A stretch of DNA of 64,000 nucleotides from a virus: the IMG/VR virus record IMGVR_UViG_3300002144_000477, positions 106,894 to 170,893 of that record; one strand, given 5' to 3'. Positions 12,809 to 44,434 of this stretch are shown here, in pieces. The position numbers and the translations under genes are program-made. The notes beneath the pieces were generated by a model that saw only the letters and a list, made by a program, of their open reading frames with translations, was not told the DNA's origin and ran no database searches. How positions within the stretch are numbered: position 1 is the stretch's first letter; each line of letters starts with the position of its first letter.

Positions 12809-12819
12809 TTTGCTCTCCT

Positions 12820-27208: not shown

Positions 27209-27549
27209 TAGCTATCCTTATTATACTTGTTAGTGGCTTCCCATTGTTCGTGGTTTTCTTGCAGTATATTTCTGCAGATATCGTGAAACCAGCGATCAAC
27301 AATTACAGACTCATCTTCGTTTGGTTTTTGTTGATAGCCAGCTCGAACTAAGTTTGTTACAAACTTCTCATTCCAGTCTAGTTCAAACGCACCGTTGCTT
27401 GGGCTAGCTTCATCCAGTTCCACTGATAGTACAGCGATGTATGGCTCTCCATTTGCTGTTGCAATGTCCTTTGCAGACTTCTTTGGTTTAGGAGCCTCTT
27501 TTTTATCTTCGGGTTTGGGCTTTTTCTTGCCCCAATCAAATAGTCCCAT
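27208..27549 (-). CDS. hypothetical phage protein
   Basis: GGAGGA SD before MGLFDW; FELDWN motif. Confidence 0.75.
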   Translation of the reverse strand: MGLFDWGKKKPKPEDKKEAPKPKKSAKDIATANGEPYIAVLSVELDEASPSNGAFELDWNEKFVTNLVRAGYQQKPNEDESVIVDRWFHDICRNILQENHEQWEATNKYNKDS

Positions 27550-28241
27550 TAAATGTCCTCCATATCGCAAATGCATTTGGCAATTATTTTGCCATCCGAC
27601 TCAATAAAAATATCACCATCTTCGATAATACAAATGCTATCGTATGGTTTTATATTTCCAAGAAAATCTATGTTTTTAATCCGTACCTTTTTATGTACAT
27701 CGTCAGCATACTGGTAAACAAATTTTAAATAATTTGCACAATATAAAATGCCTGCCGCATTGAAGTCTATGCTTGGGTACGTTGGGTATCTGTATTTTGT
27801 GACGCCATCTTTGTAACGTGCGCCGCGTGACTGTTTGTGACTATCCCAAAATTCTCTGTTTCGAATTCCCGACGAGTTAGCTCGAAATATTTTCCCGTGG
27901 TCGACATGAATTCCGATACTGAAAAGTTCGGCGGAGTTTCCGCCCCAAACATGTTTGGTTTTAAAGATGTAGTCATCGATGTAATTTCCTGTTGTTGTAA
28001 TGTTCAATTCGTTATCTTCCCTATTAGGTTCATTTAATGAATAGTTGGTTCTGAGAAAACTTTGATACACTCTCATGCCGTTTACTTTTACTTTGCTAGG
28101 CTCTTCGCTCATATAATGCCAGTGCAAATCTCCTAGAATTTTGCTGACTTGATTTAGATTCAATGATCCATCAGCCAAAAGGTGCGGCATCCCCAATACG
28201 ATTTTTGTTTCAACGCTTTCTGTCATTCTGTCATATTCCAC
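27549..28241 (-). CDS. double-hotdog protein, LnmK/Pnap_2097-like
   Basis: LGMPHL...LGDLHW and DFNAAGILYCANY resemble LnmK-family motifs. Confidence 0.55.
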   Translation of the reverse strand: MEYDRMTESVETKIVLGMPHLLADGSLNLNQVSKILGDLHWHYMSEEPSKVKVNGMRVYQSFLRTNYSLNEPNREDNELNITTTGNYIDDYIFKTKHVWGGNSAELFSIGIHVDHGKIFRANSSGIRNREFWDSHKQSRGARYKDGVTKYRYPTYPSIDFNAAGILYCANYLKFVYQYADDVHKKVRIKNIDFLGNIKPYDSICIIEDGDIFIESDGKIIAKCICDMEDI

Positions 28242-28335
28242 TGCTTCTAATCTTGTTCATTGTTTCTTCGTCCCAAACTTTAGCCTTCATCGCACGTTCA
28301 TGTTGGGCATTCTTATACTCAGGTTCCCCAGGCAT
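28231..28335 (-). CDS. 34-aa small protein (MPGEPEYKNAQHER...)
   Basis: Bridges queE stop and next start, overlapping both. Confidence 0.45.
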   Translation of the reverse strand: MPGEPEYKNAQHERAMKAKVWDEETMNKIRSSGI

Positions 28336-29191
28336 TGCCGAATATGTCCACATGTAGTCGGGGTGTGTACCTCCAACCTCGCTCCATTGCCAAAGCGGCA
28401 ACTCGTTGTGCGTTTTGTTTATATTCGTCGTACCTGCCTCCGAGTGGCATAGTATAGACTGGGCAGTAGACTCCTGCCTTGGTGTACTCTGTAACTGCCT
28501 TTGCAACCTCGTCCACGTCATCCACATGAGCAACCACAAATTTAAGATACAAGTCAGCACCAGGAATGTCGTAATAACTACGAACAATTTCAGGCTTAAT
28601 AGCATCATCCCAAGACTCTCCCGAAACAGAGAGCTTTGGACTGCAACTGAATGTAACGGTAATTTGGTCTTGATTTGCGAGATAATCAGCAAGCTCCGGT
28701 CTAATAACTTGGGTAGCATTTGTTTCAATAGTGACATTTTTTAAATCCTTCATGCGTGGATGGTTGAATAGTTCAACGTAATTACGTTGCCATCCCAGCA
28801 TCGGTTCACCACCAGTGATAATAAAATGAATGTCCTGCCCACTTGGTAATGTCCAGCTACCAGTTGGTGTCAGTGCAAGCAATTGCTCTACTATTTCGTC
28901 AGTTGTGACATCCTGCATAAAGTGCTTAAACTCAGGGTAGATACTTGCATAGGTATCGCACCCGGTATGCACAATTGGCAAATCATTGAACTCTTTATAG
29001 TTATCAATGTTTTGGATAATAATTGCAACTTCTGGATTTGGAGTCTTGCTGTCATATGCCTCAGACTTGTCTCTACCAAATTTTTTGCATCTAAAGTTGC
29101 ATCCGTACATGCGAAGGAATACGCTTGGCACACCTACGTATTTTCCCTCGCCTTGAATGCTATAGAATGCTTCTGAAAAACGCCATTTCAT
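28319..29191 (-). CDS. queE: 7-carboxy-7-deazaguanine synthase (radical SAM)
   Basis: EAFYSIQGEG, FLR.YGCNFRC...GCDT, ITGGEP, IETN, SPKL, RLH. Confidence 0.92.
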   Translation of the reverse strand: MKWRFSEAFYSIQGEGKYVGVPSVFLRMYGCNFRCKKFGRDKSEAYDSKTPNPEVAIIIQNIDNYKEFNDLPIVHTGCDTYASIYPEFKHFMQDVTTDEIVEQLLALTPTGSWTLPSGQDIHFIITGGEPMLGWQRNYVELFNHPRMKDLKNVTIETNATQVIRPELADYLANQDQITVTFSCSPKLSVSGESWDDAIKPEIVRSYYDIPGADLYLKFVVAHVDDVDEVAKAVTEYTKAGVYCPVYTMPLGGRYDEYKQNAQRVAALAMERGWRYTPRLHVDIFGNAWGT

Positions 29192-29195
29192 ATTT

Positions 29196-29762
29196 TTATC
29201 CTTCGTATGTTGCAGAGTTGGCGTCGTGCTCAAACACTTCAACACTGGTTAATTTAACATTAGCACCAACACGATACCTCTGTTCAAACACTCTACCGTC
29301 AGGATGCGTCCACCCACGGCCTTCTTGGTATGCTGTTAAGATTTCCAACATTGTTCTATATGCAAGTTCTGCAAATTTTTCACAGCCAACACCTTCTACA
29401 ATACGCAAATCAATTACGCCACCACGTTCATGTGGGCGAAGTTTACTAATCTCGCCAGTCCCGCTAGGCATCATTGTGCCTAGATTTGCTAGACGTTTAA
29501 ACTCATCTAAAAACGGATCGTCTTGTGCAACAATCGTAGTATGATCAAATTGCCAGTCAAGCCACTCTTTAAATGCTTTTAGTCCACCAAAGTCCATAAC
29601 CCAGTGGCGATCGTCAAGTGTGGGACTTTCAAACACCAGCTTAACACCGATTGAATAACCGTGTAGCGTCGAGCAGTGACTATGACTAGAACGCCATTGC
29701 CTGAATGTACAACTCAGACCTCTGTCGTTGCCATACTTTTTAGTACTATAATATTTTGTCAT
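29196..29762 (-). CDS. queD: 6-carboxy-5,6,7,8-tetrahydropterin synthase
   Basis: HCSTLHGY, WVMDFGGLK, FDHT, GCEKFA, VFEH; directly upstream of queE. Confidence 0.88.
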   Translation of the reverse strand: MTKYYSTKKYGNDRGLSCTFRQWRSSHSHCSTLHGYSIGVKLVFESPTLDDRHWVMDFGGLKAFKEWLDWQFDHTTIVAQDDPFLDEFKRLANLGTMMPSGTGEISKLRPHERGGVIDLRIVEGVGCEKFAELAYRTMLEILTAYQEGRGWTHPDGRVFEQRYRVGANVKLTSVEVFEHDANSATYEG

Positions 29763-29790
29763 TGTTTCGTTTTCCCTATGTATGTTATAG

Positions 29791-29830
29791 GTGGCGGAAT
29801 GTTTTAAGAGGGACGACACTAAGGCCTCTA
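29791..29830 (-). ncRNA. candidate preQ1-I-like riboswitch in queD leader
   Basis: AGAGG-CCUUAGUGUCGUC-CCUCU-UAAAACAUUCCGCC: 5-bp stem, 13-nt loop, A-rich tail complementary to loop. Confidence 0.45.
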
Positions 29831-29834
29831 ATAT

Positions 29835-30416
29835 CTATTCTATAGTATACTGGTATTTAGGCAAGTTGTCAAATACTTTTTTAACTTTTTCGATATCCTC
29901 GTGCATGTGTATACTAAACCAAATCCTTGGATCGGTAATTTTTACTTCATGCTCTTTAGTAATATTAATAATTATCGGAGTATCAGCCTGTGTCTCATAA
30001 GTGTACACTTGGTTACTGTCTGGTTCGTAGACTACGCCTGTCCCGCTGTTATCGTGCATTGGGTAGACAAAACTACATTGCCCGTTTTTAATACTGTCAC
30101 GATGTCGTGGCACGTTACTACTACTCCAGCATATGGTTGCTGGTGTGAACGTTAACTCGGGAAACGTATGATTAAAAAATTTATCAAGCAGTTCAGTTTC
30201 GGGGATGCCACCTAGTACAAAAAAATCAACGCTAGGACCGCTTTTACTAATCCACCCACCGCTGGGTATTTCACAAACTACACTAGCACCACTTTCGTAT
30301 ATTAAGTGATTTAAGTATTTTCCGGTGTGTACAAAATCAGTCGCTACTGTTCTAACCATCGTAGTTAGTGCATCCCAATTGTGTGCAATTTTAAATTCTG
30401 GCTGGAACCCTAACAT
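29835..30416 (-). CDS. putative cupin/2OG-Fe(II) oxygenase-fold protein
   Basis: HRD ... H ... R pattern (PRHRDS, KEHEV, RIWFSI). Confidence 0.5.
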   Translation of the reverse strand: MLGFQPEFKIAHNWDALTTMVRTVATDFVHTGKYLNHLIYESGASVVCEIPSGGWISKSGPSVDFFVLGGIPETELLDKFFNHTFPELTFTPATICWSSSNVPRHRDSIKNGQCSFVYPMHDNSGTGVVYEPDSNQVYTYETQADTPIIINITKEHEVKITDPRIWFSIHMHEDIEKVKKVFDNLPKYQYTIE

Positions 30417-30420
30417 TGCA

Positions 30421-30963
30421 TTAATGCTCCCACGGGAACACTACCCAGACATCATTTTCTGCTTTATTAATTTCTTTTACTGAATAGTCGGTATCAAACG
30501 CACTGGCTTGGTTATCAACTATACTTGCAAAGCGAACATTCTTATGCCAAACTGTATTCCACGTTTCTTCATTGGGCAAACAACTGCTTTGCCAATCTTG
30601 TTTAATCCAGTTAAATGTAGCACCGGTATCATTGATATCATCTAGAATAAGGATATTTTTGCGTAACGAAATATCCCATCGAGCCCCAGTGATTCCTGTC
30701 TCTTCACTTCGGTTATAACCAAATGCATCTTCGGCCATCCATAGATTGCTCTCTAAGCCAGTAATAGACCGGTCTCGCAAACTAACATCAAGTGTGTACA
30801 TAGGGATGCCGAGACAGTGACTCATTGTAACTGCTGGTATTAGTCCTCCTCTGGTCAGTCCAACAATGTAGTCAGGCCGCCAACTGTCCTTATACATATC
30901 GAATGCAATCCGGTGAACTGCATCTTTAACAGCGATATCACTGATATATAATTTATTATCCAT
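30421..30963 (-). CDS. type I phosphoribosyltransferase (xanthine/guanine PRT-like)
   Basis: GLTRGGLIPA, ILILDDINDTGAT PRPP loop, WVVFPWE. Confidence 0.9.
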   Translation of the reverse strand: MDNKLYISDIAVKDAVHRIAFDMYKDSWRPDYIVGLTRGGLIPAVTMSHCLGIPMYTLDVSLRDRSITGLESNLWMAEDAFGYNRSEETGITGARWDISLRKNILILDDINDTGATFNWIKQDWQSSCLPNEETWNTVWHKNVRFASIVDNQASAFDTDYSVKEINKAENDVWVVFPWEH

Positions 30964-30964
30964 G

Positions 30965-31423
30965 TTAATTTCCTAATTTAGTTGATAGGTATTGCTCCCA
31001 TTGCACCCACTTATCTTTAACCATAAACCCCCACTCACGCTGTTGTGGTCCAGGCATAAACAGTGTCCAGCAAGTTACGTCCGGATCAAGTTCGATGCGA
31101 TGAAAGCTGTTAGCACTAGATACCCGAAAGTGTCCGGGCTTACGCCAAACAGCCACTTCGCAAAGTCTTTTACCATTTTTGTCATAATTTGGAATCCATT
31201 CATAGTATCCGCCCTTTAAAATAATTGTTGCATATGGCCAGGGATGATCGTGCAGATCGTCTGGGTCTGATTTTAGAAACTTGTGCAAAAATATATTTAA
31301 CGGGAAACTCTTCCTGTCTTTTAAAAACAAGTAGTAACGTTCTAGGTACGGTTCGTTACTAGCACGGTCTAGTACAATGCGCTTACGACCTACTTTATCT
31401 AAAACTTTTAGAAACCATTTCAT
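30965..31423 (-). CDS. cupin-fold protein
   Basis: LHDHPW...GGYYE, FHRIEL, WTLF. Confidence 0.7.
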   Translation of the reverse strand: MKWFLKVLDKVGRKRIVLDRASNEPYLERYYLFLKDRKSFPLNIFLHKFLKSDPDDLHDHPWPYATIILKGGYYEWIPNYDKNGKRLCEVAVWRKPGHFRVSSANSFHRIELDPDVTCWTLFMPGPQQREWGFMVKDKWVQWEQYLSTKLGN

Positions 31424-31478
31424 AGTATTGTCCTCTTAGAAGTTAAGTTTGTATCCTACTGTTGCACGTACATTAAGT

Positions 31479-32702
31479 TCATCCATTACATTCTTCCTTT
31501 AATTTTTGCGAGACATCACTCCACAACTCGTTAAATGTTGTTGTCTTTTTTAATTCTTGTTCAATTCGATTATTAAAACTTAAAATTCTCATTGCTCGTT
31601 GTTTATTTGAAACTTTTTCAACATTCACAACATCGTTAGAAATTGGTATGCCAGTATAGCACATTTCTTTATATTTTGCTAAAGTGTCGAGAGATAAATT
31701 TTTATAATTTTCGTATTTTGTTAAAACTTTATCTATTTCTTTTGCAGCCATTAATCGTATACTTTCAGGTGCGAATCTAATGTCTAATTCATAAGGATTA
31801 ATTAAATCACACCAAAATATATCTAAATTTTTGGATAGGCAAAAATCATAAAAATCTAATAGATCAAATGCACTATATAAACAGTACGCCGGATGAGCAA
31901 TAATGTGTTGATTATGTTGTTTTAGAATATCGATGTTGTTAACAAAGGTTTTCCATTCAGCTTTATGTCTGACGTATTCAAATCGTTTTTCTAAACAATC
32001 AAAACTTATCATCCAATGTACATTGATATTTTTATTAGAAATAATAGATTTGAACATCGGGTTATTTGTCAAATCAACACTTAAATTAGTTGTTATATGA
32101 ACATTTACATATTTAGATAAATTGTTAAACAATTTATATATCGATTTCTGTAATAGAGGTTCACCGCCACCTACGGTAATACTAGATAAATGTTCTTGAT
32201 TATCTAATAGATAATTTACGGCGTTCTCTTCATCTACTTTTCCAAGTTCAATGATTTTACCTTTGACTTTTTGCCATTCTGTACTACAATCTGGACCACA
32301 ATAAAGACAAGTCAGATTACACAAATTATTCCAATTAATGCTACAACTGGTTAATACATTTTGATCGTTATTGTCTATTAGGGCACGAACGTCGGCATCT
32401 AAACTATTAACGTGCATCAATCGTTCACTACGTCCACCGTATGTTTCTGAGTCTTTACAATAACTACAATGATCGTGCCATTCTTCGTTTTTAATACTAG
32501 TTTTGATTTCGGATAATAGTTTATTTTGTAAAATTTTATCCACTGGATCTTGCAAATTATTGCCTACATTTTCGCTATAAGAACAGATCCCAGTTCCTCC
32601 ATTTACTCCTAATCTCAGAGAAGTCCACGGACAGGGGCAAAATGTTTTACTTTGACTGGTTTCTATGATGATTTGTATGATGATTTGTATCCTGTTTGCC
32701 AC
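31479..32702 (-). CDS. radical SAM protein with twitch/SPASM-like N-terminal domain
   Basis: FCPCPW, CSYC, CNLTCLYC, GGGEP; start uncertain because a promoter lies inside the predicted 5' end. Confidence 0.8.
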   Translation of the reverse strand: MANRIQIIIQIIIETSQSKTFCPCPWTSLRLGVNGGTGICSYSENVGNNLQDPVDKILQNKLLSEIKTSIKNEEWHDHCSYCKDSETYGGRSERLMHVNSLDADVRALIDNNDQNVLTSCSINWNNLCNLTCLYCGPDCSTEWQKVKGKIIELGKVDEENAVNYLLDNQEHLSSITVGGGEPLLQKSIYKLFNNLSKYVNVHITTNLSVDLTNNPMFKSIISNKNINVHWMISFDCLEKRFEYVRHKAEWKTFVNNIDILKQHNQHIIAHPAYCLYSAFDLLDFYDFCLSKNLDIFWCDLINPYELDIRFAPESIRLMAAKEIDKVLTKYENYKNLSLDTLAKYKEMCYTGIPISNDVVNVEKVSNKQRAMRILSFNNRIEQELKKTTTFNELWSDVSQKLKEECNG

Positions 32703-32712
32703 TGCATAATAC

Positions 32713-32741
32713 ATTATACGACAAAAGAGATCAAATGTCAA
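32713..32741 (-). promoter_or_regulatory. sigma70 consensus promoter TTGACA-N17-TATAAT
   Basis: Perfect consensus. Confidence 0.85.
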
Positions 32742-32763
32742 CCGCAGTGTGTAGGATAATGTG

Positions 32764-32794
32764 GTATTAATACAACGGTTGTATTAATACAACG
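32764..32794. repeat. nested palindrome/direct repeat gtattaatacaac-g-gttgtattaatac
   Basis: 13-bp perfect arms; the same 13-mer recurs at 55278-55290. Confidence 0.75.
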
Positions 32795-32805
32795 CCGTAG
32801 TTTAA

Positions 32806-33345
32806 TTACTTGGCTTCGTGTCTATTCAAGTATTCCAACACAGTTTCAGGACTTGAAACGCCGTATGGGTCCACTGTAGAATTGTCACAGCGGCCTGGCT
32901 CTTCAAAGAACTGTTCAATCACACCATTATACACAATCATAGCATAACGCCAACTACGCATGCCAAAGCCTAGATTGTCTTTGTCCACCAACATACCCAA
33001 TTGACGAGTAAATGTACCAGAACCATCTGGGATGAACTTTAGTTTTTCAACCTGTTGATCCAACATCCATTTACGCATGACAAATGTGTCGTTTACACTC
33101 AACACGTAAATGTCGTCTACTGCTTTAGCACAAATTTCTTCGTGATGCTGTTCAAAGCCAGGCACTTGGTATGTTGAGCAAGTTGGTGTAAATGCTCCCG
33201 GCAAACTGAACACCACAACACGACGGTTCTTAAAGATTTCGTCTGTGGTCAAATCTTGCCACTTGAATGGATTGTCGCCGCCGATGCTGTCATCGCGGAC
33301 TCGTGTTTTGAATGTCACACTTGGGACTGTGATTCCTTGCTTCAT
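32806..33345 (-). CDS. peroxiredoxin (Prx5/redoxin family)
   Basis: LPGAFTPTCS, SVNDTFVM, GMRSWRY; AAGGAG SD before MKQG. Confidence 0.93.
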   Translation of the reverse strand: MKQGITVPSVTFKTRVRDDSIGGDNPFKWQDLTTDEIFKNRRVVVFSLPGAFTPTCSTYQVPGFEQHHEEICAKAVDDIYVLSVNDTFVMRKWMLDQQVEKLKFIPDGSGTFTRQLGMLVDKDNLGFGMRSWRYAMIVYNGVIEQFFEEPGRCDNSTVDPYGVSSPETVLEYLNRHEAK

Positions 33346-33483
33346 TATTTTACTCCTTGAAATGATCAAACTCAGTGTTTCCACTGATATGTTATTGTAA
33401 CAGTATTTACTATAGAAATCTACTATTATTTCATTGTTTTTTATTGTATTTTCCTATGGCATCAATTGGTATTTCCATTGGCC

Positions 33484-33506
33484 AAAAGAAACCCGCCGAA
33501 GCGGGT
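33484..33506 (-). terminator. rho-independent terminator (UUCG loop)
   Basis: acccgc-ttcg-gcgggt-ttctttt on minus strand. Confidence 0.85.
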
Positions 33507-33524
33507 ATATCTAATTGGTATAGA

Positions 33525-35195: not shown

Positions 35196-35249
35196 TTTCA
35201 CAACTCCTTATTATTGTTATTATTGTGTGAATCTGTGTATTTATCAGTC

Positions 35250-35274
35250 AAAAGAAAACCCGCCTAAGCGGGTT
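35250..35274 (-). terminator. rho-independent terminator
   Basis: aacccgc-ttag-gcgggtt-ttctttt; near-identical to 33484-33506. Confidence 0.85.
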
Positions 35275-35294
35275 ATCGTGTGCGTATGGTTGAG

Positions 35295-35594
35295 TTAAAA
35301 TTTAAGTGATTCCATGGTGATAATTTTACTAATCTCTTCACCTAAATCAACATCATCGGTAATAATGTAATTGTCACCTGTGGATCTGTCAGTTCTATTA
35401 TCGTAGCGTCTAGTGCTGACAATAAACCCACCATTGGCCTTGGTCAGTGTAAAACGCATGGGCTCGCCAAAGGTTTCAACATCGTCGCAAGATACTAAAC
35501 TGCCCCTCGACAATTTCGATTGGTAGGCATCTGCATCTGGTTTTTCATTGGGATCACGAACCCAATCGCGTAGTTTTCTTTTAAGCCATTTCAT
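35295..35594 (-). CDS. hypothetical protein
   Basis: ATGA-coupled ORF. Confidence 0.7.
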   Translation of the reverse strand: MKWLKRKLRDWVRDPNEKPDADAYQSKLSRGSLVSCDDVETFGEPMRFTLTKANGGFIVSTRRYDNRTDRSTGDNYIITDDVDLGEEISKIITMESLKF

Positions 35595-35983
35595 GTTTTA
35601 ATCTCCGTGATTAACAACGGGCCATACATAGTTGTTTCGCACTCCTCGAATGACCAGCCTGCTTCCTCGAATGCCGCAAACCCGTCGTTGTCCCACATTT
35701 CATCTACTTCTGCAAGCAATAATTGATCACCGTCTGTATTAAAATCCAGTGAAATGCCATCATCCATTTCTTGGTCTTGGATAGCGTAGTCGTCTAGATC
35801 GAATCCAAACTCATTGGTTGAATTATATTCAACGTCGAACTCTTGATCGTCTTCAACTTCGATGATCGCATGTCCCCGCCGCCAAAGTTGATCTACATAA
35901 AAAATGCGACCGTCAGGGTGTGTCCATGTTTCGACTTGCTTAATACTTTTTTTATCTTTAGGTTCAATTTTGTATAATTTCAT
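35591..35983 (-). CDS. acidic hypothetical protein
   Basis: ATGA-coupled to folE. Confidence 0.7.
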   Translation of the reverse strand: MKLYKIEPKDKKSIKQVETWTHPDGRIFYVDQLWRRGHAIIEVEDDQEFDVEYNSTNEFGFDLDDYAIQDQEMDDGISLDFNTDGDQLLLAEVDEMWDNDGFAAFEEAGWSFEECETTMYGPLLITEIKT

Positions 35984-36666
35984 CGTGGTGCAAACTCTTG
36001 TTGTAGTTTGATGTTGTCAAAGAACTCTTTCTTTGTATTGCCGTCTGTATTAAATGCCCCTTTTAGTACAGTAGTCTGTGTTAACGAACTATGCGCCATA
36101 ATGCCACGATTTTCACAACAACCATGTGTTGCTTGAATGTAGACTGCTACGTTTTCACTGTCGGTTGCCTTCATAATCTCACGAGCAATGTCGTTACAAA
36201 GTTCTTCTTGTAGTGTGCCGCGACGAGCACACCACTGTGCAATACGTGTATACTTCGAAAGGCCGATTAGTTTTTCTGCCGCAATAATGCCAATATAAGC
36301 AACCCCAGTAACGGGTTGGTGATGATGACTACACATACTACGAAGTTCACTGCGAACCACGAGCATGCCTTCGTAACGGTCTGCCGAATCATTTGGAAAT
36401 GCTGTTGCGTCTGGTGCTGGTTCATATCTTCCTGCCATTATTTCGTTAAAGTACATTTTAGCAAGACGTCTTGCAGTGCCTTGACTGTTAGGATCATTGT
36501 AACGATCAATTACTAGTGCATCTAGTACACTGTTAAATGCTAATGTAGCTTCGTCAATAAGTTGTTCTTTATCGCCTTCTTGTAATACTGTACTGATGTT
36601 ATCACCAGCCCAGTGACGAATGCCATATTTTTCTAGTTTTGTTTTAATTTCTTGTGCTTTACTCAT
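35980..36666 (-). CDS. folE: GTP cyclohydrolase I
   Basis: SMCSHH, GLSKYTR, LQE, HGCCENRG. Confidence 0.95.
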   Translation of the reverse strand: MSKAQEIKTKLEKYGIRHWAGDNISTVLQEGDKEQLIDEATLAFNSVLDALVIDRYNDPNSQGTARRLAKMYFNEIMAGRYEPAPDATAFPNDSADRYEGMLVVRSELRSMCSHHHQPVTGVAYIGIIAAEKLIGLSKYTRIAQWCARRGTLQEELCNDIAREIMKATDSENVAVYIQATHGCCENRGIMAHSSLTQTTVLKGAFNTDGNTKKEFFDNIKLQQEFAPR

Positions 36667-36672
36667 TTATAT

Positions 36673-36700
36673 CTCCGATGTTAAGGCAGTGGATTGCCGT
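36673..36700 (-). ncRNA. candidate minimal pseudoknot/riboswitch in folE leader
   Basis: GGCA-AUCCAC-UGCC-UUAACAUC-GGAG; loop UCC is complementary to SD GGA. Confidence 0.4.
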
Positions 36701-36707
36701 ATTGTTT

Positions 36708-36736
36708 ATTATACAATCAACTAAGTCGATTGTCAA
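36708..36736 (-). promoter_or_regulatory. sigma70 consensus promoter TTGACA-N17-TATAAT for folE
   Basis: Perfect consensus. Confidence 0.88.
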
Positions 36737-36752
36737 TTCTATTTAGACAGCA

Positions 36753-37337
36753 TCAGCTATCAATCCAAATAAGTTCTTTCCCATTTGGGTATGTTTTATA
36801 TTCAGGAATAGGATTCACATAGGGTAGTTTATCTAGACCCAACTTAGCTAGTTCAGGTGTGGGCCGCATGTGGTACGCAATTTTAGGGATAGGATGATTC
36901 TGCCAGGGATTAACTGATAAATCTCTTCCGTCATACCGTTGCTTAATAACAGTACTATAAAACTGTTCGTCGTCGGTTAGTATAGCGCCACCCCAACCAA
37001 GCTCAAGGGGCTTACCGAATCCAAAACTTAAACATTGTAGGGTCCCGGCACGATACATGTTAGGTGCAAGTAGCCTAGCACTATCCCATATCCTGGTATT
37101 GTTAAATTGATATTCACCGACCCATTCGTCGTCAGTTAACTCGTATACAATGCCTAGACGATGCATTAGTTGGTGTATGCTAAGGTAGGTATACTTAGAA
37201 TAACTAGTCATACTAACTCCGTCGTAGCGCAAACACAACTCTAGTGCATTAGTGCAACAATCAGTCATAATTGCATACGGAGCACCAGTATGCTTTGCGA
37301 GAGTGTCTTCAAACGCTTTAATTAATTCAAATGCCAT
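36753..37337 (-). CDS. short DegT-like PLP enzyme
   Basis: CCTNALEL, WDSA, CLSFGFGKPL, GGAILTDD; about 194 aa. Confidence 0.7.
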   Translation of the reverse strand: MAFELIKAFEDTLAKHTGAPYAIMTDCCTNALELCLRYDGVSMTSYSKYTYLSIHQLMHRLGIVYELTDDEWVGEYQFNNTRIWDSARLLAPNMYRAGTLQCLSFGFGKPLELGWGGAILTDDEQFYSTVIKQRYDGRDLSVNPWQNHPIPKIAYHMRPTPELAKLGLDKLPYVNPIPEYKTYPNGKELIWIDS

Positions 37338-38313
37338 TTTGTACAGATTCTTCTGCAGAGATGTTATACCAATCCCACGCACTTGAAACAATTTGATCAA
37401 CTGAGCTGTGCATTGGCATCCAACCTAACATTTTCATTGCTTTGCTACTGTCTGCAATTAGTAAGTCGGGGTCGCCTTCTCTACGTGGGCCGGCTTTGAT
37501 GTTAACTGGCCCAATGTTGTTAACTACATAATCAATGATTTGTTGATTACTAATACCGGTATTAGTACCTAAGTTAAACGCCTCTGCACCATTTGCACTA
37601 TACTTAGTAGTGGCAAGTAAGTATGCACTAGCAATATCGTTGACGCTAATGTAGTCGCGAATACAAGTCCCGTCCGGCGTATTGTAATCGTTGCCGTTTA
37701 ATGTGAAGACACTGTCTTTTATTTTTGATTCTAGGATTCTAGCAATGATATGGGTAGCACCATGCGCTTGTCCTAAATCCTTACTAGCGCCTGCCGCATT
37801 AAAATACCTAAAGCTAATACTATTCAATCCGTATGCACTATAATAGTCTTGCAAAATGCGTTCAATTATAGCCTTAGTTGATCCATATGGACTCATTGGG
37901 TTAATAGGCGAGTCTTCTGTAATAGGAGTTACTTTAGGATTTCCGTATACACTTGCGCTACTACTAAACATAAATGTCGGCAGTTGCCCTTTACATTGCT
38001 CAACGATAGCACGTAAGAAGTTGATGGTTCCACGTACATTATTAGTATAGTATTCGTCGGGATTCATGACACTCGGACCTACTAAACTAGTACCCGCACA
38101 ATGCACAACAACATCTGGTTTTACCTGTGCTATGTATTTGGACACTAATGTATAATCACCGTAGTCTGCCTTCAATATCTCATCATGGTATTGCCTTGCA
38201 TTGGTGTTAGTAGTTTCGCGGTCGATGCCATACACTTTCCAACTAATGCTATTAAATGCTTTAGCAATATTGCTACCAATGTAGCCGTTGCTTCCGGTGA
38301 TTAGTACGTTCAT
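37327..38313 (-). CDS. galE: UDP-glucose 4-epimerase-like
   Basis: ITGSNGYIGS, FSSSASVYG, YGSTK, RYFNAAGA, DGTCIRDY, RREGD. Confidence 0.88.
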   Translation of the reverse strand: MNVLITGSNGYIGSNIAKAFNSISWKVYGIDRETTNTNARQYHDEILKADYGDYTLVSKYIAQVKPDVVVHCAGTSLVGPSVMNPDEYYTNNVRGTINFLRAIVEQCKGQLPTFMFSSSASVYGNPKVTPITEDSPINPMSPYGSTKAIIERILQDYYSAYGLNSISFRYFNAAGASKDLGQAHGATHIIARILESKIKDSVFTLNGNDYNTPDGTCIRDYISVNDIASAYLLATTKYSANGAEAFNLGTNTGISNQQIIDYVVNNIGPVNIKAGPRREGDPDLLIADSSKAMKMLGWMPMHSSVDQIVSSAWDWYNISAEESVQNGI

Positions 38314-38315
38314 AA

Positions 38316-39491
38316 TTAGTATTTCTCTTCTGACACAAAGTCTCTATATCGATTACCTGCACGATTCCACTGCTCGCCGTTGCCTTGCATAATATCAACC
38401 ATACGGTTAATAGTACCATCGGTCCAGTTACTAATTTTGCCTATGTTGGCATGAGGCTCGCTCAACAACTTTTCTAGTTTCGTTTCTGCATCTGACAGGC
38501 TCCATGGAATATAAAGTCGTTCTGCGTCATTTGCAAAAGTTTCCGGGAAACTGCGGTACGCAGGATATAACACGTTACAGCCAAGGGTGTCTGCTTCACT
38601 TACCGTATTTGACACCCAGTCTTGTAATGCACAGTTAAACAACACCTTACTATCGTTGACGATATTATAGTAATCATTTTTTTGCAAGTCTTTATATATC
38701 TTTAACTTACCGTCGGCTTCCATCTTTAAAGCACGGTCCAAGTACTTTTGATTATTACTGCGTAACGGGCCACCACTTAGCACTGCAAATTCAACATCTG
38801 GACGAGCTTGCTTGAATCGTTCTATTAGATCCATAAAAAAGTCTGGTTGCTTTTCTTGATCAAACCGTGCGGCAAATACAACCCTATCGCTACGTTGATC
38901 CCACGGCTTAATCTTATTATCAACCCGACCTCGGACTTCTTCTTTACTAAAGCTCAGACCGCTAATGTTGTAAATCGGAGCAGTCCAGTTTGCAATTTTC
39001 ATATGTGCTACCATTTCTTCGTTAGTAGCAAGAATATTAACATTAGGAATTTCGTTGCACATTTGCTCGTACAAACTCATCCACTTGCCCATACCCCATA
39101 CGTGAACAAAGTCGTCGGGATCGACTGCTTGTGCTAGACATCGCAAGTAAATAGTTGGGCGTTGTTCTTCGGGAATCTGGCACATGATGTACGGCAAAGA
39201 TTCGATTCCCGGTTGAAACATATCCTCGAAGAATACCACATCGCCACCGCCGCATTCGCCGCTTCGCATCATCTGCACTAAATTCATTAACTGACTCATA
39301 CCAAAGTAGCTACGTCCGTGTGCATCTAATACTTGACCGACACTAATTGCCTTAGTGTTGTCGATAGTGCTTCCGGGCACTACAACATAGTCGATTCCGC
39401 GTTGCTTAAACACACGCTCGCTCCACTCTTGTAGTTGCAAAGTGTATCGACCTTCGTACGGCTCAAGGCCCATATAAAAAAGTTTTTTCAT
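38316..39491 (-). CDS. GT-B (GT4-like) glycosyltransferase
   Basis: FAARFDQEKQP, EA..LGC..LYP..RSFPE C-terminal GT-B motif. Confidence 0.75.
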   Translation of the reverse strand: MKKLFYMGLEPYEGRYTLQLQEWSERVFKQRGIDYVVVPGSTIDNTKAISVGQVLDAHGRSYFGMSQLMNLVQMMRSGECGGGDVVFFEDMFQPGIESLPYIMCQIPEEQRPTIYLRCLAQAVDPDDFVHVWGMGKWMSLYEQMCNEIPNVNILATNEEMVAHMKIANWTAPIYNISGLSFSKEEVRGRVDNKIKPWDQRSDRVVFAARFDQEKQPDFFMDLIERFKQARPDVEFAVLSGGPLRSNNQKYLDRALKMEADGKLKIYKDLQKNDYYNIVNDSKVLFNCALQDWVSNTVSEADTLGCNVLYPAYRSFPETFANDAERLYIPWSLSDAETKLEKLLSEPHANIGKISNWTDGTINRMVDIMQGNGEQWNRAGNRYRDFVSEEKY

Positions 39492-39751
39492 TATTGTGAT
39501 TTCCTAACGTTGCTATTGTGGTTTTTAGTAGCGTATCTAAAATTAGCAGATTTTTTTCGGGCGGGATCAAACGGTGGACGTTGGAACCAGTGATTGCGAA
39601 TTTGCCGACCTTCTTTCATTGCGGTATAATCTTGGTAGTGGGGGCTACGCATGTTATACAGATCTTTTTCTCTAAACGGACGGCCAAACTCAACACAGAA
39701 CTCTTGATATTCTTCGAGATCTTTAAAAATTTGTGCAACTTGGGGTTTCAT
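39491..39751 (-). CDS. hypothetical protein
   Basis: AGGA SD, TAATG coupling. Confidence 0.7.
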   Translation of the reverse strand: MKPQVAQIFKDLEEYQEFCVEFGRPFREKDLYNMRSPHYQDYTAMKEGRQIRNHWFQRPPFDPARKKSANFRYATKNHNSNVRKSQ

Positions 39752-39800
39752 AAATCATTTTCCTGTTACAGAGATTAATATACAAAGTTATTTAGATTTA

Positions 39801-40247
39801 TTATACTACCGCGTAAACATTTTCGCAACCATTTTCGTTGTCTTCGCTTACACTAATTTTTACAACACGGCCCGGATACTTTGTTGCAATTTTACGATAC
39901 AAATCGTCTGCAATCATTTCGCAGGACTTGTGATTCAAATTAAGCACCGAAGTACCACCGTCGAGCTGTTGATATAGTCTTTCCATCCATCGCTTGAACT
40001 GGATGAATTCGATGTCTCTATCGTTGTGGAACACTTCGATACACACCCGGAAATGAAAGATATGGCGGTGAGGAATACCAAGGAACGAAACGTCGTCCCA
40101 GCCGCCTGTTGCCAGTTTTGGATCACTGTCTGCTCCTGGATACATATGTACACCTTCTTTTTGAAAGGTAACCCAGATCATTTTTGATGCTTTGTTGATT
40201 GATTGATCAATAGCAGTTCGTTCGGAATTAGTTATTGGATGCGTCAT
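39801..40247 (-). CDS. second QueD/PTPS-like T-fold protein
   Basis: HRHIFHFRV, DIEFIQFKR, SCEMIA, VSEDNENG parallel QueD motifs; start corrected. Confidence 0.6.
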   Translation of the reverse strand: MTHPITNSERTAIDQSINKASKMIWVTFQKEGVHMYPGADSDPKLATGGWDDVSFLGIPHRHIFHFRVCIEVFHNDRDIEFIQFKRWMERLYQQLDGGTSVLNLNHKSCEMIADDLYRKIATKYPGRVVKISVSEDNENGCENVYAVV

Positions 40248-40785
40248 TATTTGGTATGCTCGTTGTTCGTGGTTGAAGTTTGGCCATTTTATCTCTGCCG
40301 TAGTCGTGCCAGCTAGTGTACGACTCCTTAGTGCGCAAGTCGTGCAACGTGTGAACCCACACGCCACCATTTACTCCGCCGACACCGACGTCGTCTAGTT
40401 TTAAACAAGCGTTGTAACCTGCTTGTTGAATAGATGGAAGCTCAATACTTAACATCATAATAAAGTTTGGGTGTTTAACTAATGAAGTTTCCATTAGGTC
40501 GTTATATTGACTTAATGGTATGTCTAGTGTACACTGAAATCCTTGATGCAAAAACACCGTAATAGTATTAACCCACTTATTCCATTCCGCGGCACTTAAT
40601 TTCTCCTTAGGGAAACTTTTATTAGCACCAAAATAAAGATGTGTGCAAAACTCCGGTCGAATCTTGCTGATAGTAACAGGATTAATCCATTTTGCAAGAA
40701 ACAGCGTTTGCTTACCTTTTGCAGGAGTGTTTTCGATTTCTCTGCCGATCATGTAGTCGGCATCTTCGCGAGTAATTTTAGTCAA
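40228..40785 (-). CDS. hypothetical phage protein
   Basis: GREIENTPA, HLYFGAN, LKLDD, GVWVH; has own promoter. Confidence 0.7.
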   Translation of the reverse strand: MTKITREDADYMIGREIENTPAKGKQTLFLAKWINPVTISKIRPEFCTHLYFGANKSFPKEKLSAAEWNKWVNTITVFLHQGFQCTLDIPLSQYNDLMETSLVKHPNFIMMLSIELPSIQQAGYNACLKLDDVGVGGVNGGVWVHTLHDLRTKESYTSWHDYGRDKMAKLQPRTTSIPNNDASNN

Positions 40786-40821
40786 TGTAAAGCCTTGATG
40801 TTTAAATGGTTCTATACAGTA

Positions 40822-40850
40822 AGTATACTATATTTTATAAGTGTGGTCAA
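40822..40850 (-). promoter_or_regulatory. sigma70-type promoter TTGACC-N17-TATACT
   Basis: Heads the hypothetical-queD2-GT-galE-degT gene run. Confidence 0.7.
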
Positions 40851-40858
40851 TGACTTTA

Positions 40859-41053
40859 TTAACCATTATGTCCTAGGTTCGATTCGAGTCGTCGAATTTC
40901 GTTTTTAACTTGTAGTTTTTTCTGCTTTAGCGCACCAGCTCTTGCAATATCTTCTGGGATGTGGGATTTGTTGAGTTGATCTACTTCGTCATTAAGTACT
41001 TTGTGTGCTTGCTTTAAGCTCTCTAAGTGTGCTGTAGTTTTGGTATTATTCAT
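40859..41053 (-). CDS. YdcH/DUF465-like coiled-coil protein
   Basis: H..L...V...LKQKKLQVKNEI. Confidence 0.65.
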   Translation of the reverse strand: MNNTKTTAHLESLKQAHKVLNDEVDQLNKSHIPEDIARAGALKQKKLQVKNEIRRLESNLGHNG

Positions 41054-41055
41054 TG

Positions 41056-42591
41056 TTATGCTTCCTCAAAAAGTGAATTGAACATAGTGTTCGCGTTTTT
41101 AGTTTTCTTACCTTTGAATCCGCGAGTACCAATAATGTCCATCCAGTAATCATCATATTGTTCAATGATTGCTAGACTTTCTTCTTTAGTAGGTGCGGCA
41201 AAGATAGTTTCTACAATATCTTCAAAAAATGCAAAGTCGCCATTACTGTATCGCATCATTGCAGGATGCTCGCCTGCATCGAATCGTCGATTGGCTTCTT
41301 GCACAGCGGTTAAGTGCATCCATACATTATGGCCCATTAGCAATGCGTAACTAAAACTATCCCAGGAAGTTTTGCCCCACTTACCGTTCTTGTTTAAGTC
41401 TGGCATTACGTCGTAGTTTTCTTCAATTAACCTATTTTCAAGAGTATCAGCAACTCCGGCTTTCAGTACACCCGGTTTGTAGATACAGATGTCTTTCATT
41501 GTTAACATATCGCTAATAGGGCTGTCTTCCCAACGTGGGTAAATGCCATCAGCAACAACACCGTCTGCCCACTTGCGTGTATCTAGTGCATACTTCTTGT
41601 CGTCTGCACTTGGAGCCATCCTATATGACCACTTACCATCTTGTGGGAACGCATTTTCAAAATACACTTGTCCGTTTGCAGTGGCAAGGAATGGGCTAGC
41701 ACAATCAAAAGAGATAGTAAACGCAGGATTTACATACTTGCGTATTGCTCTTTGGATCACGGTGAGTAGTACTGCCCATTCCAACTTACTTGTTCCTAGG
41801 AAGTGCATCCAGTCATGAACACCTTCTTGCAACAAATTATCGTAGCGCAATGCAACCAAACGCTTGAGTACCAAGTGTACATCACACATGTTCTGACCGC
41901 CCATTGACCAACCATCGAAGTGCGTGTCTGGGTATACAGCAGGATCACAAAATGATTTCATTTCCTGGTACCATGCTTCGGCACTTGAATGATTGTCGCC
42001 TTGTAACACGTTTAAGTACTTGGCACCGCCATTCTTTTTACCTTTGCGGTTAGCCATAAAGTATTCGTTGTTGTACTTGGTGGCGTCAACTGCTTCTTGC
42101 AATGTTTTGATCCCACACTTGTCACTGGCGTTTTTGTCGTGTATAACCCAAGTTGGAATATCAAGAATCATGCCATAGTCGGCAATGTTATCTAACCATG
42201 TCAATATTTGACTGCGTTTCTTTTGTGCTTTAGGGCACCCTGAATTAGCCTTCCAATCGCCTTCCCACAAGCCTTTGGCAATCTGGAAACCGCCCGAGTC
42301 GCCTAACATAAACGTATCCTCTGCACGATTACGAACCATGTCCTCGGACCAATCTTCTTTATTGAGATCTAGATTAGCATGTCCGCCGGAATATAGACTC
42401 CACCGATATGGAAATAGCCCTTTTTGACTATTAAGCCAATTCATTTGTTCCATATCAACTAACCCTTGCGGAAATCTAGATGGGTCTACGTATTCTTCGT
42501 TACGTTGCTTGCCTACGAATGTAGCATAGAACCCGCTGATGGCTGGCAAAAATACTGCGTAGTCTTTTTGTTTTTCTGTTAAGTTATCCAT
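41056..42591 (-). CDS. TGT-fold transglycosylase (DpdA-like DNA guanine transglycosylase candidate)
   Basis: DSGGFQ, MILDIP, NVLQG, GWSMGG, HFLG, SFD motifs of the TGT family; Que gene context. Confidence 0.75.
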   Translation of the reverse strand: MDNLTEKQKDYAVFLPAISGFYATFVGKQRNEEYVDPSRFPQGLVDMEQMNWLNSQKGLFPYRWSLYSGGHANLDLNKEDWSEDMVRNRAEDTFMLGDSGGFQIAKGLWEGDWKANSGCPKAQKKRSQILTWLDNIADYGMILDIPTWVIHDKNASDKCGIKTLQEAVDATKYNNEYFMANRKGKKNGGAKYLNVLQGDNHSSAEAWYQEMKSFCDPAVYPDTHFDGWSMGGQNMCDVHLVLKRLVALRYDNLLQEGVHDWMHFLGTSKLEWAVLLTVIQRAIRKYVNPAFTISFDCASPFLATANGQVYFENAFPQDGKWSYRMAPSADDKKYALDTRKWADGVVADGIYPRWEDSPISDMLTMKDICIYKPGVLKAGVADTLENRLIEENYDVMPDLNKNGKWGKTSWDSFSYALLMGHNVWMHLTAVQEANRRFDAGEHPAMMRYSNGDFAFFEDIVETIFAAPTKEESLAIIEQYDDYWMDIIGTRGFKGKKTKNANTMFNSLFEEA

Positions 42592-44427: not shown

Positions 44428-44434
44428 TCTAAGA

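Follow-up and report, generated by a model that had tools for sequence, protein, structure and literature searches.

The locus studied here lies in an uncultured jumbo phage, represented by a contig of 170,893 bp with a CheckV completeness of about 49%, of which a window of 64,000 nucleotides was analysed. All genes of the cluster are on the minus strand (Table 1) and include those for FolE, QueD, a QueE-like radical-SAM protein, a purine phosphoribosyltransferase (PRTase), GalE, a GT4-like glycosyltransferase and a short DegT-like protein. The same list had been proposed in the original prediction, made from the DNA letters alone, and was confirmed by profile matches, homology and fold.

Table 1. 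Features of the phage locus, with their positions in the window and the evidence for each assignment
Feature	Position	Strand	Evidence
QueE-like radical SAM protein (CDG synthase)	28319..29245	-	NCBIfam QueE models and homology
QueD (6-carboxytetrahydropterin synthase)	29196..29819	-	PF01242 (PTPS), 54.6 bits vs cut-off 22.4
Purine phosphoribosyltransferase (PRTase)	30421..30963	-	PF00156
FolE (GTP cyclohydrolase I)	35980..36666	-	PF01227, E 1e-39
Miniature DegT-like protein, 215 aa, role uncertain	36753..37400	-	PF01041, E 4.5e-11
UDP-glucose 4-epimerase GalE	37327..38313	-	TIGR01179, 282.8 bits vs cut-off 262.3
GT4-like glycosyltransferase (GT-B, retaining-type)	38316..39491	-	PF00534, 28.2 bits vs cut-off 26.4
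Small conserved ORF, 86 aa, between DpdL and glycosyltransferase	39491..39751	-	Conservation
DpdL homologue (QueD paralogue, proposed CDG decarboxylase)	39801..40247	-	Motif and homology
Conserved protein, 185 aa, between transglycosylase and DpdL	40228..40785	-	Conservation
DpdA-like guanine transglycosylase, 511 aa, proposed DNA base-exchange enzyme	41056..42591	-	Predicted TGT/DpdA fold
Sliding-clamp-like protein	44435..45154	-	30% identity to Phosso gene annotated as sliding clamp
Family-B DNA polymerase (genomic context)	46193..48859	-	PF00136 and PF03104

Together, FolE, QueD and QueE convert GTP into 7-carboxy-7-deazaguanine (CDG), a chemistry that is well established. The QueD protein scored below the cut-off of TIGR03367. 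For the QueE-like protein, the five top NCBIfam matches were all QueE models, each below its cut-off, and identity to QueE of PA5oct, Vibrio phage 2.275.O and lineage L106 ranged from 32 to 53%. Homologues of the PRTase adjoin the cluster in L100, PA5oct, L108 and BUCT-ZZ01, and one lies about 17 kb away in phage phiST.

The 511-aa protein gave no match in sequence searches against Pfam, PHROG, NCBIfam and PDB. Its AF2 model (pLDDT 89.9, pTM 0.90) exhibited a TGT fold: at least the best 50 of 177 Foldseek matches (E ≤ 0.001) were TGTs, and VIA Z was 19.5 with ArcTGT, 17.3 with bacterial TGT and 16.1 with the bacterial DpdA 7ui4, versus at most 11.8 with generic TIM barrels. The TGT-fold gene with a DSGGFQ motif, as originally predicted, is present, with MLGDSGGFQ in its product. 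Within the family, the DSGGFQ...SFDCASP motifs were invariant, as were residues D98, S99, G101, H263 and D296 among 50 diverse members, and the C-terminal motifs (LNVLQG to SFDCASP) were aligned with bacterial TGT by hhalign. The protein shares with bacterial DpdA and phage DpdA1 and DpdA2, which are preQ0/preQ1 DNA transglycosylases, the TIM-barrel TGT fold, the DSGG motif, a second catalytic-type aspartate and linkage to deazaguanine synthesis genes. However, it is about 100-150 residues longer, lacks a Pfam TGT (PF01702) match and the CxCxxC zinc motif, and is likely to use 7-deazaguanine, or a sugar derivative, in place of preQ0. It is a member of a large, abundant and new DpdA-like subfamily, which published work does not cover.

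The TGT fold and the gene context suggest that this enzyme exchanges guanine for a deazaguanine in phage DNA, and we regard DNA as its probable substrate. Homologues of the enzyme are also encoded amid deazaguanine genes in independent settings, namely in Vibrio phage 2.275.O, L102 and PA5oct. Polymerase and clamp genes adjoin the transglycosylase gene in all relatives, with the clamp-like gene located between the other two in 73 out of 73. An LF dipeptide was found within the C-terminal 30 residues in about 38% of the family, although only some of these ends resemble a clamp-binding peptide. Alternatively, the PRTase could make a deazaguanine nucleotide that is incorporated by the polymerase, with the TGT-fold protein acting elsewhere (on tRNA or in proofreading). 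The recurrence of the PRTase beside deazaguanine clusters would fit such a route, as would the P-loop kinase-like protein and the annotated MazG-like pyrophosphatase added in phiST-type clusters, and ADG nucleoside in CP220-infected cells, from an earlier report as cited in PMC10516641. Nevertheless, a DpdA-type enzyme is present in every phage known to have deazaguanine DNA, and base exchange has been demonstrated for several DpdA subfamilies (PMC10516641). These data, the constant tie to clamp and polymerase and, to some extent, the LF dipeptides make entry before replication improbable.

The gene between the 185-aa and 86-aa proteins had been described as a second QueD, an assignment that we revise. 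Its product, which probably starts at 40181 or 40247, carries the motif FLGIPHRHIFHF, corresponding to the LxxxHRHxF signature, and is a homologue of phiST DpdL (34% identity, E 2e-15; hhalign 98.6%). It also showed 53% identity to ACP17 gp125 and matched phrog_17812. DpdL is the proposed CDG decarboxylase of the 2'-deoxy-7-deazaguanosine (dDG) route in Cellulophaga phage phiST (PMC10516641). Since the supposed second QueD is a DpdL, the base made and inserted is most likely 7-deazaguanine, rather than CDG as first suggested. The decarboxylase role of DpdL is a proposal from the literature, and no dDG was formed when dpdL and dpdA of phiST and ACP17 were expressed in E. coli, which counts against this reading.

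The DpdL/DpdA3 system of phiST (Nucleic Acids Res 2023; PMC10516641) and the cluster described here both contain FolE, QueD, QueE and a DpdL with the LxxxHRHxF signature, a remote TGT-fold transglycosylase and a PRTase in the same genome, and both lack QueC. They differ in that phiST DpdA3 is 259 aa long, versus 511 aa, with a relation detectable at the profile level only (hhalign 88.5%, 87 columns), and in that phiST has no glycosyltransferase, GalE or 185-aa protein, with the kinase-like protein and MazG instead. The cluster is thus of the published DpdL/dDG type; the transglycosylase subfamily and the glycosyltransferase as a near-constant neighbour of DpdL go beyond published work. In its core part, it is very probably a 7-deazaguanine DNA-modification system.

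The original prediction also held that the cluster lacks QueC, which was found to be correct. QueC, QueF and Pfam TGT had no match anywhere in the contig, including its remaining part; the complete PA5oct and Phosso genomes, both with a DpdL and glycosyltransferase module, also lacked QueC, and a 335-kb relative contig contained only a partial PP-loop match. This absence is not new in itself and is explained by the DpdL-type route, as decarboxylation to 7-deazaguanine, as proposed, would make QueC unnecessary. As the contig covers half a genome, QueC or another tailoring gene could sit in the missing part, and a host QueC could also process CDG, which counts against the DpdL-type explanation. 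In either case preQ0 or a derivative would be inserted, presumably as in Vibrio phage 2.275.O, where the transglycosylase homologue is found with QueF, YhhQ, QueC, Gat and FolE; in L102 a homologue likewise adjoins QueC, and PA5oct has one with QueE. Relatives also encode a PP-loop ATPase whose N-terminus resembles that of QueC, but these proteins match positions 3-69 of the QueC profile only and show no similarity past that N-terminal stretch. With DpdL and QueC mutually exclusive in the loci examined, and with the two complete genomes lacking QueC, an external source of QueC appears highly improbable.

The AF2 model of the glycosyltransferase (pLDDT 77) showed a GT-B fold, closest to GT4 enzymes (VIA Z 20-21.7; Foldseek E 2e-11 to BshA). 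T4 AGT gave a VIA Z of 18.6, inside the general GT4 range, so that DNA glycosyltransferases were not singled out, and no sequence similarity to the T4 alpha- and beta-glucosyltransferases was detected. Using a family HMM, we found the glycosyltransferase gene adjacent to DpdL or at most about 4 kb from it in nine lineages, across three different transglycosylase families: the phage studied here, L100 and L106, and the cultured phages PA5oct, Phosso, ACP17, BUCT-ZZ01, BUDD and BCSR5. It was also beside DpdL in all further MAG-binned loci with room for it (13 out of 13). Co-occurrence of the glycosyltransferase with the deazaguanine genes across distant phages, which had been set beforehand as a test of the original prediction, was found in at least nine lineages.

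A close parallel in gene order is the Pseudomonas jumbo phage PA5oct (Wroclawvirus), in which gp162-gp170 follow the same order: polymerase, clamp-like protein, DpdA-like gp168 (37% identity), glycosyltransferase gp167, DpdL gp166 (59% identity), PRTase gp163, QueE gp162 and exonuclease. FolE and QueD are 55 kb distant from the PA5oct cluster, which contains a 172-aa Rossmann fragment rather than a full GalE or a DegT-like gene. The modification of PA5oct DNA is known from resistance to restriction enzymes with G sites, not from base chemistry.

The sugar genes could instead act on a protein or on a surface glycan of the virion or host, being clustered for regulation only, with plain dDG in the DNA. 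Full replacement by dDG occurs in phiST, which lacks the glycosyltransferase, as do six DpdL lineages; the structural neighbours of the enzyme are ordinary GT4 proteins, and 7-deazaguanine has no obvious hydroxyl or amine acceptor at C7. These points all count against a sugar on the base. On the other hand, this glycosyltransferase subfamily occurs almost exclusively with DpdL, which was present in 18 of the 23 phage records carrying the family (the remaining five form a weaker group that resembles BshA and has another context) and in 28 of 50,697 records overall. Given this association, its recurrence in nine lineages and its location within the block of replication genes rather than with structural ones, we consider plain dDG rather unlikely.

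The cluster was also considered as the source of a metabolite instead of a DNA base, namely a soluble glycoside of a pterin or deazapurine. FolE, PTPS-fold enzymes and a glycosyltransferase do resemble pteridine glycoside synthesis, and the tetrahydrobiopterin glucosyltransferase 5zer was among the top structural matches (Z 20.0); however, the top 25 GT4 matches were tied in Z, so that 5zer was not singled out. QueE and the TGT-fold enzyme are constant in the set, the cluster is embedded amid replisome genes and PA5oct DNA is modified at G, which leaves such a product extremely improbable.

The genes around DpdL differed in their conservation. The 185-aa protein was found in 68 of 68 close relatives, as well as in L100 and ACP17 (gp122), and had no match in Pfam, PHROG, PDB or Atlas; the 86-aa ORF, which 60 of 61 close relatives share, had no Pfam or PHROG family match. 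GalE, which probably provides the donor sugar, occurred in 48 of 50 close relatives and in only 5 of 16 more distant loci, and the DegT-like gene in 43 of 45 and 3 of 16, respectively. The latter protein matches PF01041 in two stretches, the best of which spans no more than profile positions 15-62 out of 360, and keeps the SFxxGK motif (SFGFGK). The run of 185-aa protein, DpdL, glycosyltransferase, GalE and miniature DegT was kept in 43-68 close relatives. Sugar-nucleotide genes vary by lineage, with GalE here and PMM and a ManC-like gene in L106.

The cluster is best explained, with moderate confidence, as a 7-deazaguanine DNA-modification system of the DpdL type that includes an additional sugar step. 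FolE, QueD and QueE would make CDG from GTP, and the DpdL homologue would strip its carboxyl group, as the literature proposes. The TGT-fold protein would then swap DNA guanine for 7-deazaguanine, judging from fold and gene context, and the freed guanine would most likely be recycled by the PRTase. Finally, the glycosyltransferase, fed with UDP-hexose by GalE, may add a sugar to the deazaguanine, either once it is in DNA or earlier, on the free base. The phage DNA would be expected to resist restriction at G-containing sites. Of the original interpretation, the 7-deazaguanine cluster and its DpdA-like enzyme stand, CDG as the inserted base does not, and an amino sugar is weakly indicated, as the DegT-like protein is a miniature conserved among close relatives only.

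That the final base carries a sugar is plausible but tentative, being suggested by gene linkage. A phage GT-B enzyme decorating a modified base via a host-type UDP-sugar, as proposed here, would recall the T4 glucosyltransferases, which act on 5-hydroxymethylcytosine DNA; their acceptor is a pyrimidine hydroxymethyl, whereas a purine analogue without such a handle would be used here. Derivatives of 7-deazaguanine are able to bear sugars, as in mannosyl- and galactosyl-queuosine of eukaryotic tRNA and in the N2-glycosylated preQ0 antibiotics huimycin and dapiramicin. Such compounds are small molecules or constituents of tRNA rather than of DNA, and their enzymes are not known to be related to those of the cluster. 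We found no description of a sugar-bearing deazaguanine in DNA in the literature; if the proposed step is correct, this phage DNA would carry a sugar-bearing purine new to the literature found.

Of two cupins noted in the original prediction, the one at 30965-31423 matched phrog_4786 'cysteine dioxygenase' and the second had no family match; nor did family searches support an 'LnmK-like hotdog' gene. The cupin and 'hotdog' genes lie over 10 kb away from the anchor gene, outside the tally of relatives, and no conservation with the cluster was observed for radical-SAM genes, a redoxin gene and a sulfotransferase-like gene. The promoter proposed at 40850-40822 exists as a site (10 of 12 positions), but such sites were no more common in the region than in shuffled sequence (26 versus 22.2 ± 5.2). 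A perfect site (12/12) was observed at 36736-36708, near the FolE gene.

The window is the final 64 kb of a linear IMG/VR phage contig of 170,893 bp (CheckV completeness ~49%). Contigs encoding near-identical proteins reach 350-365 kb, which points to an uncultured jumbo phage as the source; a megablast search with 8 kb of the window against the phage collection returned no match. The FolE, QueD, PRTase, GalE and glycosyltransferase (GT) genes of the original prediction were all recovered by family searches, and all genes of the cluster are located on the minus strand. For the predicted QueE, the best-scoring models were indeed those of QueE, all under their cut-offs; the protein shares 32-53% identity with the QueE of relatives. 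The predicted short DegT gene keeps its motif, but its best match to the DegT/DnrJ/EryC1 profile covers positions 15-62 of 360 only. A perfect sigma-70 consensus (12/12) was observed upstream of folE (36736-36708). Two leaders resembling preQ1 riboswitches (29763-29872 and 36667-36736) found no support, Rfam giving none at E <= 1 over 25-46 kb.

Genes of the cluster and its surroundings. Coordinates are those of the window; conservation refers to the 80 closest loci, as loci with the gene/loci with room for it (cupins left out)
Feature	Coordinates	Strand	Basis of assignment	Close loci
QueE-like, divergent	28319-29245	-	top five NCBIfam matches are QueE models, each below cut-off	
QueD	29196-29819	-	family search	
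PRTase	30421-30963	-	family search	
FolE	35980-36666	-	family search	35/40
DegT-like miniature	36753-37400	-	215 aa, SFxxGK motif retained (SFGFGK)	43/45
GalE	37327-38313	-	TIGR01179 equivalog, 282.8 bits vs cut-off 262.3	48/50
Group-1 glycosyltransferase (GT)	38316-39491	-	PF00534 (Glycos_transf_1), 28.2 bits vs 26.4, barely over cut-off	53/53
86-aa ORF	39491-39751	-		60/61
DpdL homologue	39801-40247	-	LxxxHRHxF signature	63/63
185-aa protein	40228-40785	-		68/68
511-aa transglycosylase	41056-42591	-	fold search	
Clamp-like protein	44435-45154			
Family-B polymerase	46193-48859			

The gene predicted to encode a second QueD encodes a QueD paralogue with the identity of DpdL. Its sequence, FLGIPHRHIFHF, carries the LxxxHRHxF signature that separates DpdL from QueD (PMC10516641), in the form L34-G-I-P-H38-R-H40-I-F42, replacing the CxxxHGH of QueD. 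Across 23 sequences, L34, H38, H40 and F42 were invariant and R39 almost so. The window protein is 34% identical to the DpdL of Cellulophaga phage phiST (E 2e-15; hhalign 98.6%) and 53% identical to ACP17 gp125, the dpdL product of PMC10516641. DpdL is the proposed decarboxylase of 7-carboxy-7-deazaguanine (CDG) in phages that possess FolE, QueD, QueE and DpdA without QueC, among them phiST, in which dG is wholly replaced by 2'-deoxy-7-deazaguanosine (dDG); expression of dpdL and dpdA from phiST or ACP17 in E. coli yielded no dDG, and further enzymes are perhaps required (PMC10516641). The window encodes this same set, with a DpdA-like protein and without QueC (contig ~49% complete).

The lack of QueC had been taken as a sign of novelty. 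The lack itself held: no match to QueC, QueF or the Pfam TGT family was found across the whole contig (~49% complete), and QueC was also absent from the complete genomes of phages PA5oct and Phosso, both of which carry the same module together with FolE and PTPS genes. In a 335-kb relative contig, only a PP-loop protein was detected, with a match restricted to the opening third of the QueC profile. We considered whether such PP-loop ATPases of relatives (L081:1366-2235; L139 G006:C57:157015-160212; 290-320 aa) might be a hidden QueC, and rejected this: they match PF06508 with 28 bits over profile positions 3-69 of 210, so that the N-terminal loop alone is shared, and blastp gave no QueC similarity further on. 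Their gene is missing from the window's contig, though its neighbour is present (window 12206-12868). Given the DpdL identity, the QueC-less complete genomes and this partial match, the absence of QueC is, as judged from sequence, real, and it denotes an already published pathway type rather than a new one.

A search of the prokaryote genome collection for DpdL gave 16 matches, all 16 on MAG contigs (L121-L136) assigned to discordant taxa, including Neomarinimicrobiota, Rickettsiales, Methanobacteriota and Nitrosarchaeum; one of these, L122, is PBPT01000016.1 (335 kb). Clamp/transglycosylase synteny was observed in 9 of the 16 and a transglycosylase in 11, several others being too short to show synteny. 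Because of the discordant taxa, and of the phage polymerase/clamp synteny in most, we rejected bacterial islands as an explanation and read these contigs as probable mis-binned phage DNA. In Vibrio phage Bakedbeans, gp176 (383 aa; L116:9212-10363) has DpdL as its C-terminal third and matches no family in its N-terminal part; this is a possible fusion, which may hint at a partner of DpdL.

Sequence searches failed to place the 511-aa transglycosylase: neither the protein nor a profile of 50 family members matched anything in Pfam, PHROGs, NCBIfam or the PDB sequences, and its affiliation was answered only by fold. A model built from the family alignment with AlphaFold (AF2; pLDDT 89.9, pTM 0.90) was used in a Foldseek search, in which the best 50 of 177 matches at E <= 0.001 were tRNA-guanine transglycosylases (E 5e-7, probability 1.0). 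In an independent all-against-all structural search, the VIA Z scores were 19.5 for ArcTGT, 18.1 for QTRT2, 17.3 for bacterial TGT, 16.1 for the DNA preQ0 insertase DpdA (7ui4) and 15.2 for Cap10, and no higher than 11.8 for other TIM barrels. Two aspartates, D98 (DSGGFQ) and D296 (SFDCASP), are invariant among the 50 family members; from what is known of TGTs, we take these to be the catalytic residue of the DSGG motif and the FDC-type nucleophile, respectively. In hhalign, LNVLQG, GG, HFLG and SFDC paired with IVQG, IGGL, LMGVG and MFDC of bacterial TGT, with an overall probability of only 26%.

The original prediction called for a comparison of this protein with DpdA subfamilies and tRNA TGTs. 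The TGT/DpdA fold was borne out. PF01702 (Pfam TGT) matched neither the protein nor the contig, and one of the 50 family members reached E 0.088; the zinc motif CxCxxC...H is absent, C297 and C369 being the only cysteines after D296. PF20314 (DUF6610, DpdA4) gave no match to the protein at E <= 0.01 and was absent from the matches of the 50 members at E <= 1. A possible kinship with DpdA3 (phiST CGPG_00065) was seen in a profile comparison (hhalign 88.5%, E 2.7e-6) restricted to 87 columns between proteins of 511 and 259 aa; by BLASTP, the PA5oct homologue matched DpdA3 at E 4 and the window protein had no match at E <= 10, and the family HMM found nothing in phiST or CP220. On the basis of the fold, the missing zinc motif and a possible DpdA3 kinship confined to profile level, we treat the protein as a putative new DpdA-like subfamily. 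The family is very large: clustering at 90% identity gives >7,000 clusters, and 922 representatives are left at 50%. In the 335-kb relative contig, the open frame matching the transglycosylase (L146, G006:C57:133331-134833) contains one in-frame TAG.

Among cultured phages, homologues were found in the PA5oct group, Sinorhizobium phage Phosso and Vibrio phage 2.275.O. The transglycosylase was linked to 7-deazaguanine synthesis genes in the window, PA5oct, Vibrio phage 2.275.O, the metagenomic loci L100, L102 and L106, and 11 MAG-binned loci. In Vibrio phage 2.275.O, the genes after it encode QueF, a YhhQ-type transporter, QueC, a Gat domain and FolE; in L102, QueC comes after it. In PA5oct, Vibrio phage 2.275.O and those metagenomic relatives that were examined, the gene lies downstream of a clamp-like gene and the family-B polymerase gene. 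In Phosso, the clamp-like gene follows the polymerase at ~170 kb from the transglycosylase gene. An LF dipeptide occurred within the C-terminal 30 residues of 19 of the 50 family members (~10% expected by chance, as a rough estimate), and only some of these tails look like a clamp-binding peptide, which gives a hint rather than a rule for the family. A peptide of the F..SLF type ends both the transglycosylase (41056-41100) and the polymerase (46193-46240) of the window; PA5oct gp168 lacks the LF dipeptide in its tail. In PA5oct and L102, a homing endonuclease or intein interrupts the polymerase gene, which is continuous in the window.

The GT model (pLDDT 77) exhibited a GT-B fold with two Rossmann domains. 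Its nearest structures were retaining GT4 enzymes (VIA Z 20-21.7 over 305-331 residues), with tied scores and diverse acceptors; T4 alpha-glucosyltransferase and a pterin glucosyltransferase score inside the same range. Relatives of the window GT additionally have PF13692. The predicted synteny of the GT with deazaguanine genes was confirmed: by family HMM, it lies beside DpdL in nine lineages (the window phage, L100, PA5oct, L106, Phosso, ACP17, Synechococcus phage BUCT-ZZ01, Xanthomonas phage BUDD and Burkholderia phage BCSR5) and was present in 13 of the 13 MAG-binned phage contigs with room for it, while GalE was retained in 48 of 50 close loci. In PA5oct, the stop of the DpdA-like gene and the start of the GT gene (gp167) overlap. 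Overall, 18 of the 23 phage records with the GT family also have DpdL, which occurs in just 28 of 50,697 records, and the module is carried by six cultured phage groups. Five Xanthomonas and Erwinia phages with a weaker, BshA-like GT match, in a GlmS/BshB-type context, were left out of this association.

Since the GT was found alongside three mutually remote transglycosylase families, its constant partner is DpdL or what DpdL makes. Where the same transglycosylase family is combined with QueC or QueF (Vibrio phage 2.275.O and L102), both DpdL and the GT were absent. The GT was absent from six DpdL lineages, including phiST, so that the sugar step looks like an optional extension of the dDG route. 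Lineages differed in their sugar-nucleotide genes: the window and L100 have GalE, L106 has a phosphomannomutase and a ManC-like gene, and BUCT-ZZ01 has a second GT. In this cultured cyanophage, two GTs (L118:7361-8704 and 10352-11518), one of them 71% identical to the window GT, flank the transglycosylase and DpdL, and may make a disaccharide. In the GT-less DpdA3-type clusters of phiST (L086:46381-46860) and Chryseobacterium phage MA9V-3 (L119:10279-10749), a P-loop kinase-like protein (AAA_18) is encoded between DpdA3 and DpdL, the spot occupied by the GT module in other lineages.

The gene content, the folds, the identity of DpdL, the statistics of linkage and, in complete relatives, the missing QueC are observations. 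The pathway proposed with them is one in which DpdL would make 7-deazaguanine, the 511-aa enzyme would insert it into DNA, the GT would add a sugar to it and the PRTase would recycle the guanine set free. Of these steps, the addition of a sugar is the least secure, since 7-deazaguanine offers no evident acceptor. Conceivable solutions are an N2 glycoside, a C-glycoside at the electron-rich pyrrole, or transfer of the sugar to the free base ahead of its insertion. We tentatively propose, at somewhat short of even chances, that these phages have DNA with a glycosylated 7-deazaguanine, made by DpdL and a dedicated GT4 and installed at the replication fork by an unnamed DpdA subfamily, the sugar differing by lineage: a hexose via GalE in the window phage, a mannose-type sugar in L106 and perhaps a disaccharide in BUCT-ZZ01.

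No description of a glycosylated deazaguanine in DNA was found in the literature searched (full text, limited library). To our knowledge, eight 7-deazaguanine DNA bases have been reported so far, none with a sugar, and this would be the first purine analogue in DNA for which a sugar is described. If true, it would constitute a new class of DNA hypermodification and would account for the failure of DpdL and DpdA alone to yield dDG in E. coli. A transglycosylase family that counts thousands of metagenomic members, in aquatic jumbo phages of very high abundance, would also gain a name and a role, and the G modification of the therapy candidate PA5oct, the target of END nucleases, would be revealed. 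The authors of the PA5oct study inferred a modified G and pointed out QueE and a PTPS gene, not the transglycosylase, DpdL or the GT (PMC12191111).

Among the most conserved genes of the close loci, the 185-aa protein was also found upstream of the ACP17 transglycosylase; it had no match in Pfam, PDB or Atlas, and no relative with known function was detectable. The radical-SAM/SPASM genes, the sulfotransferase-like gene, the DUF465 gene, the redoxin gene and a 558-aa ORF were mostly missing from the close loci and are regarded as passengers; the first four had been considered as pathway parts and were set aside, being present in 0-27% of loci only. The product of the sulfotransferase-like gene (42584-43411; 275 aa) matches Sulfotransfer_2 weakly, at E 0.011 and under the cut-off, and the gene was found in only 20 of 75 relatives. 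Finally, in both radical-SAM proteins (31479-32741 and 43414-44472) a SPASM/twitch domain lies on the N-terminal side of the radical-SAM core, the former protein scoring above the cut-off of NF033640, 'N-terminal twitch' (176.8 vs 170 bits), and they were next to the cluster in 5 of 28 and 9 of 74 relatives, respectively.
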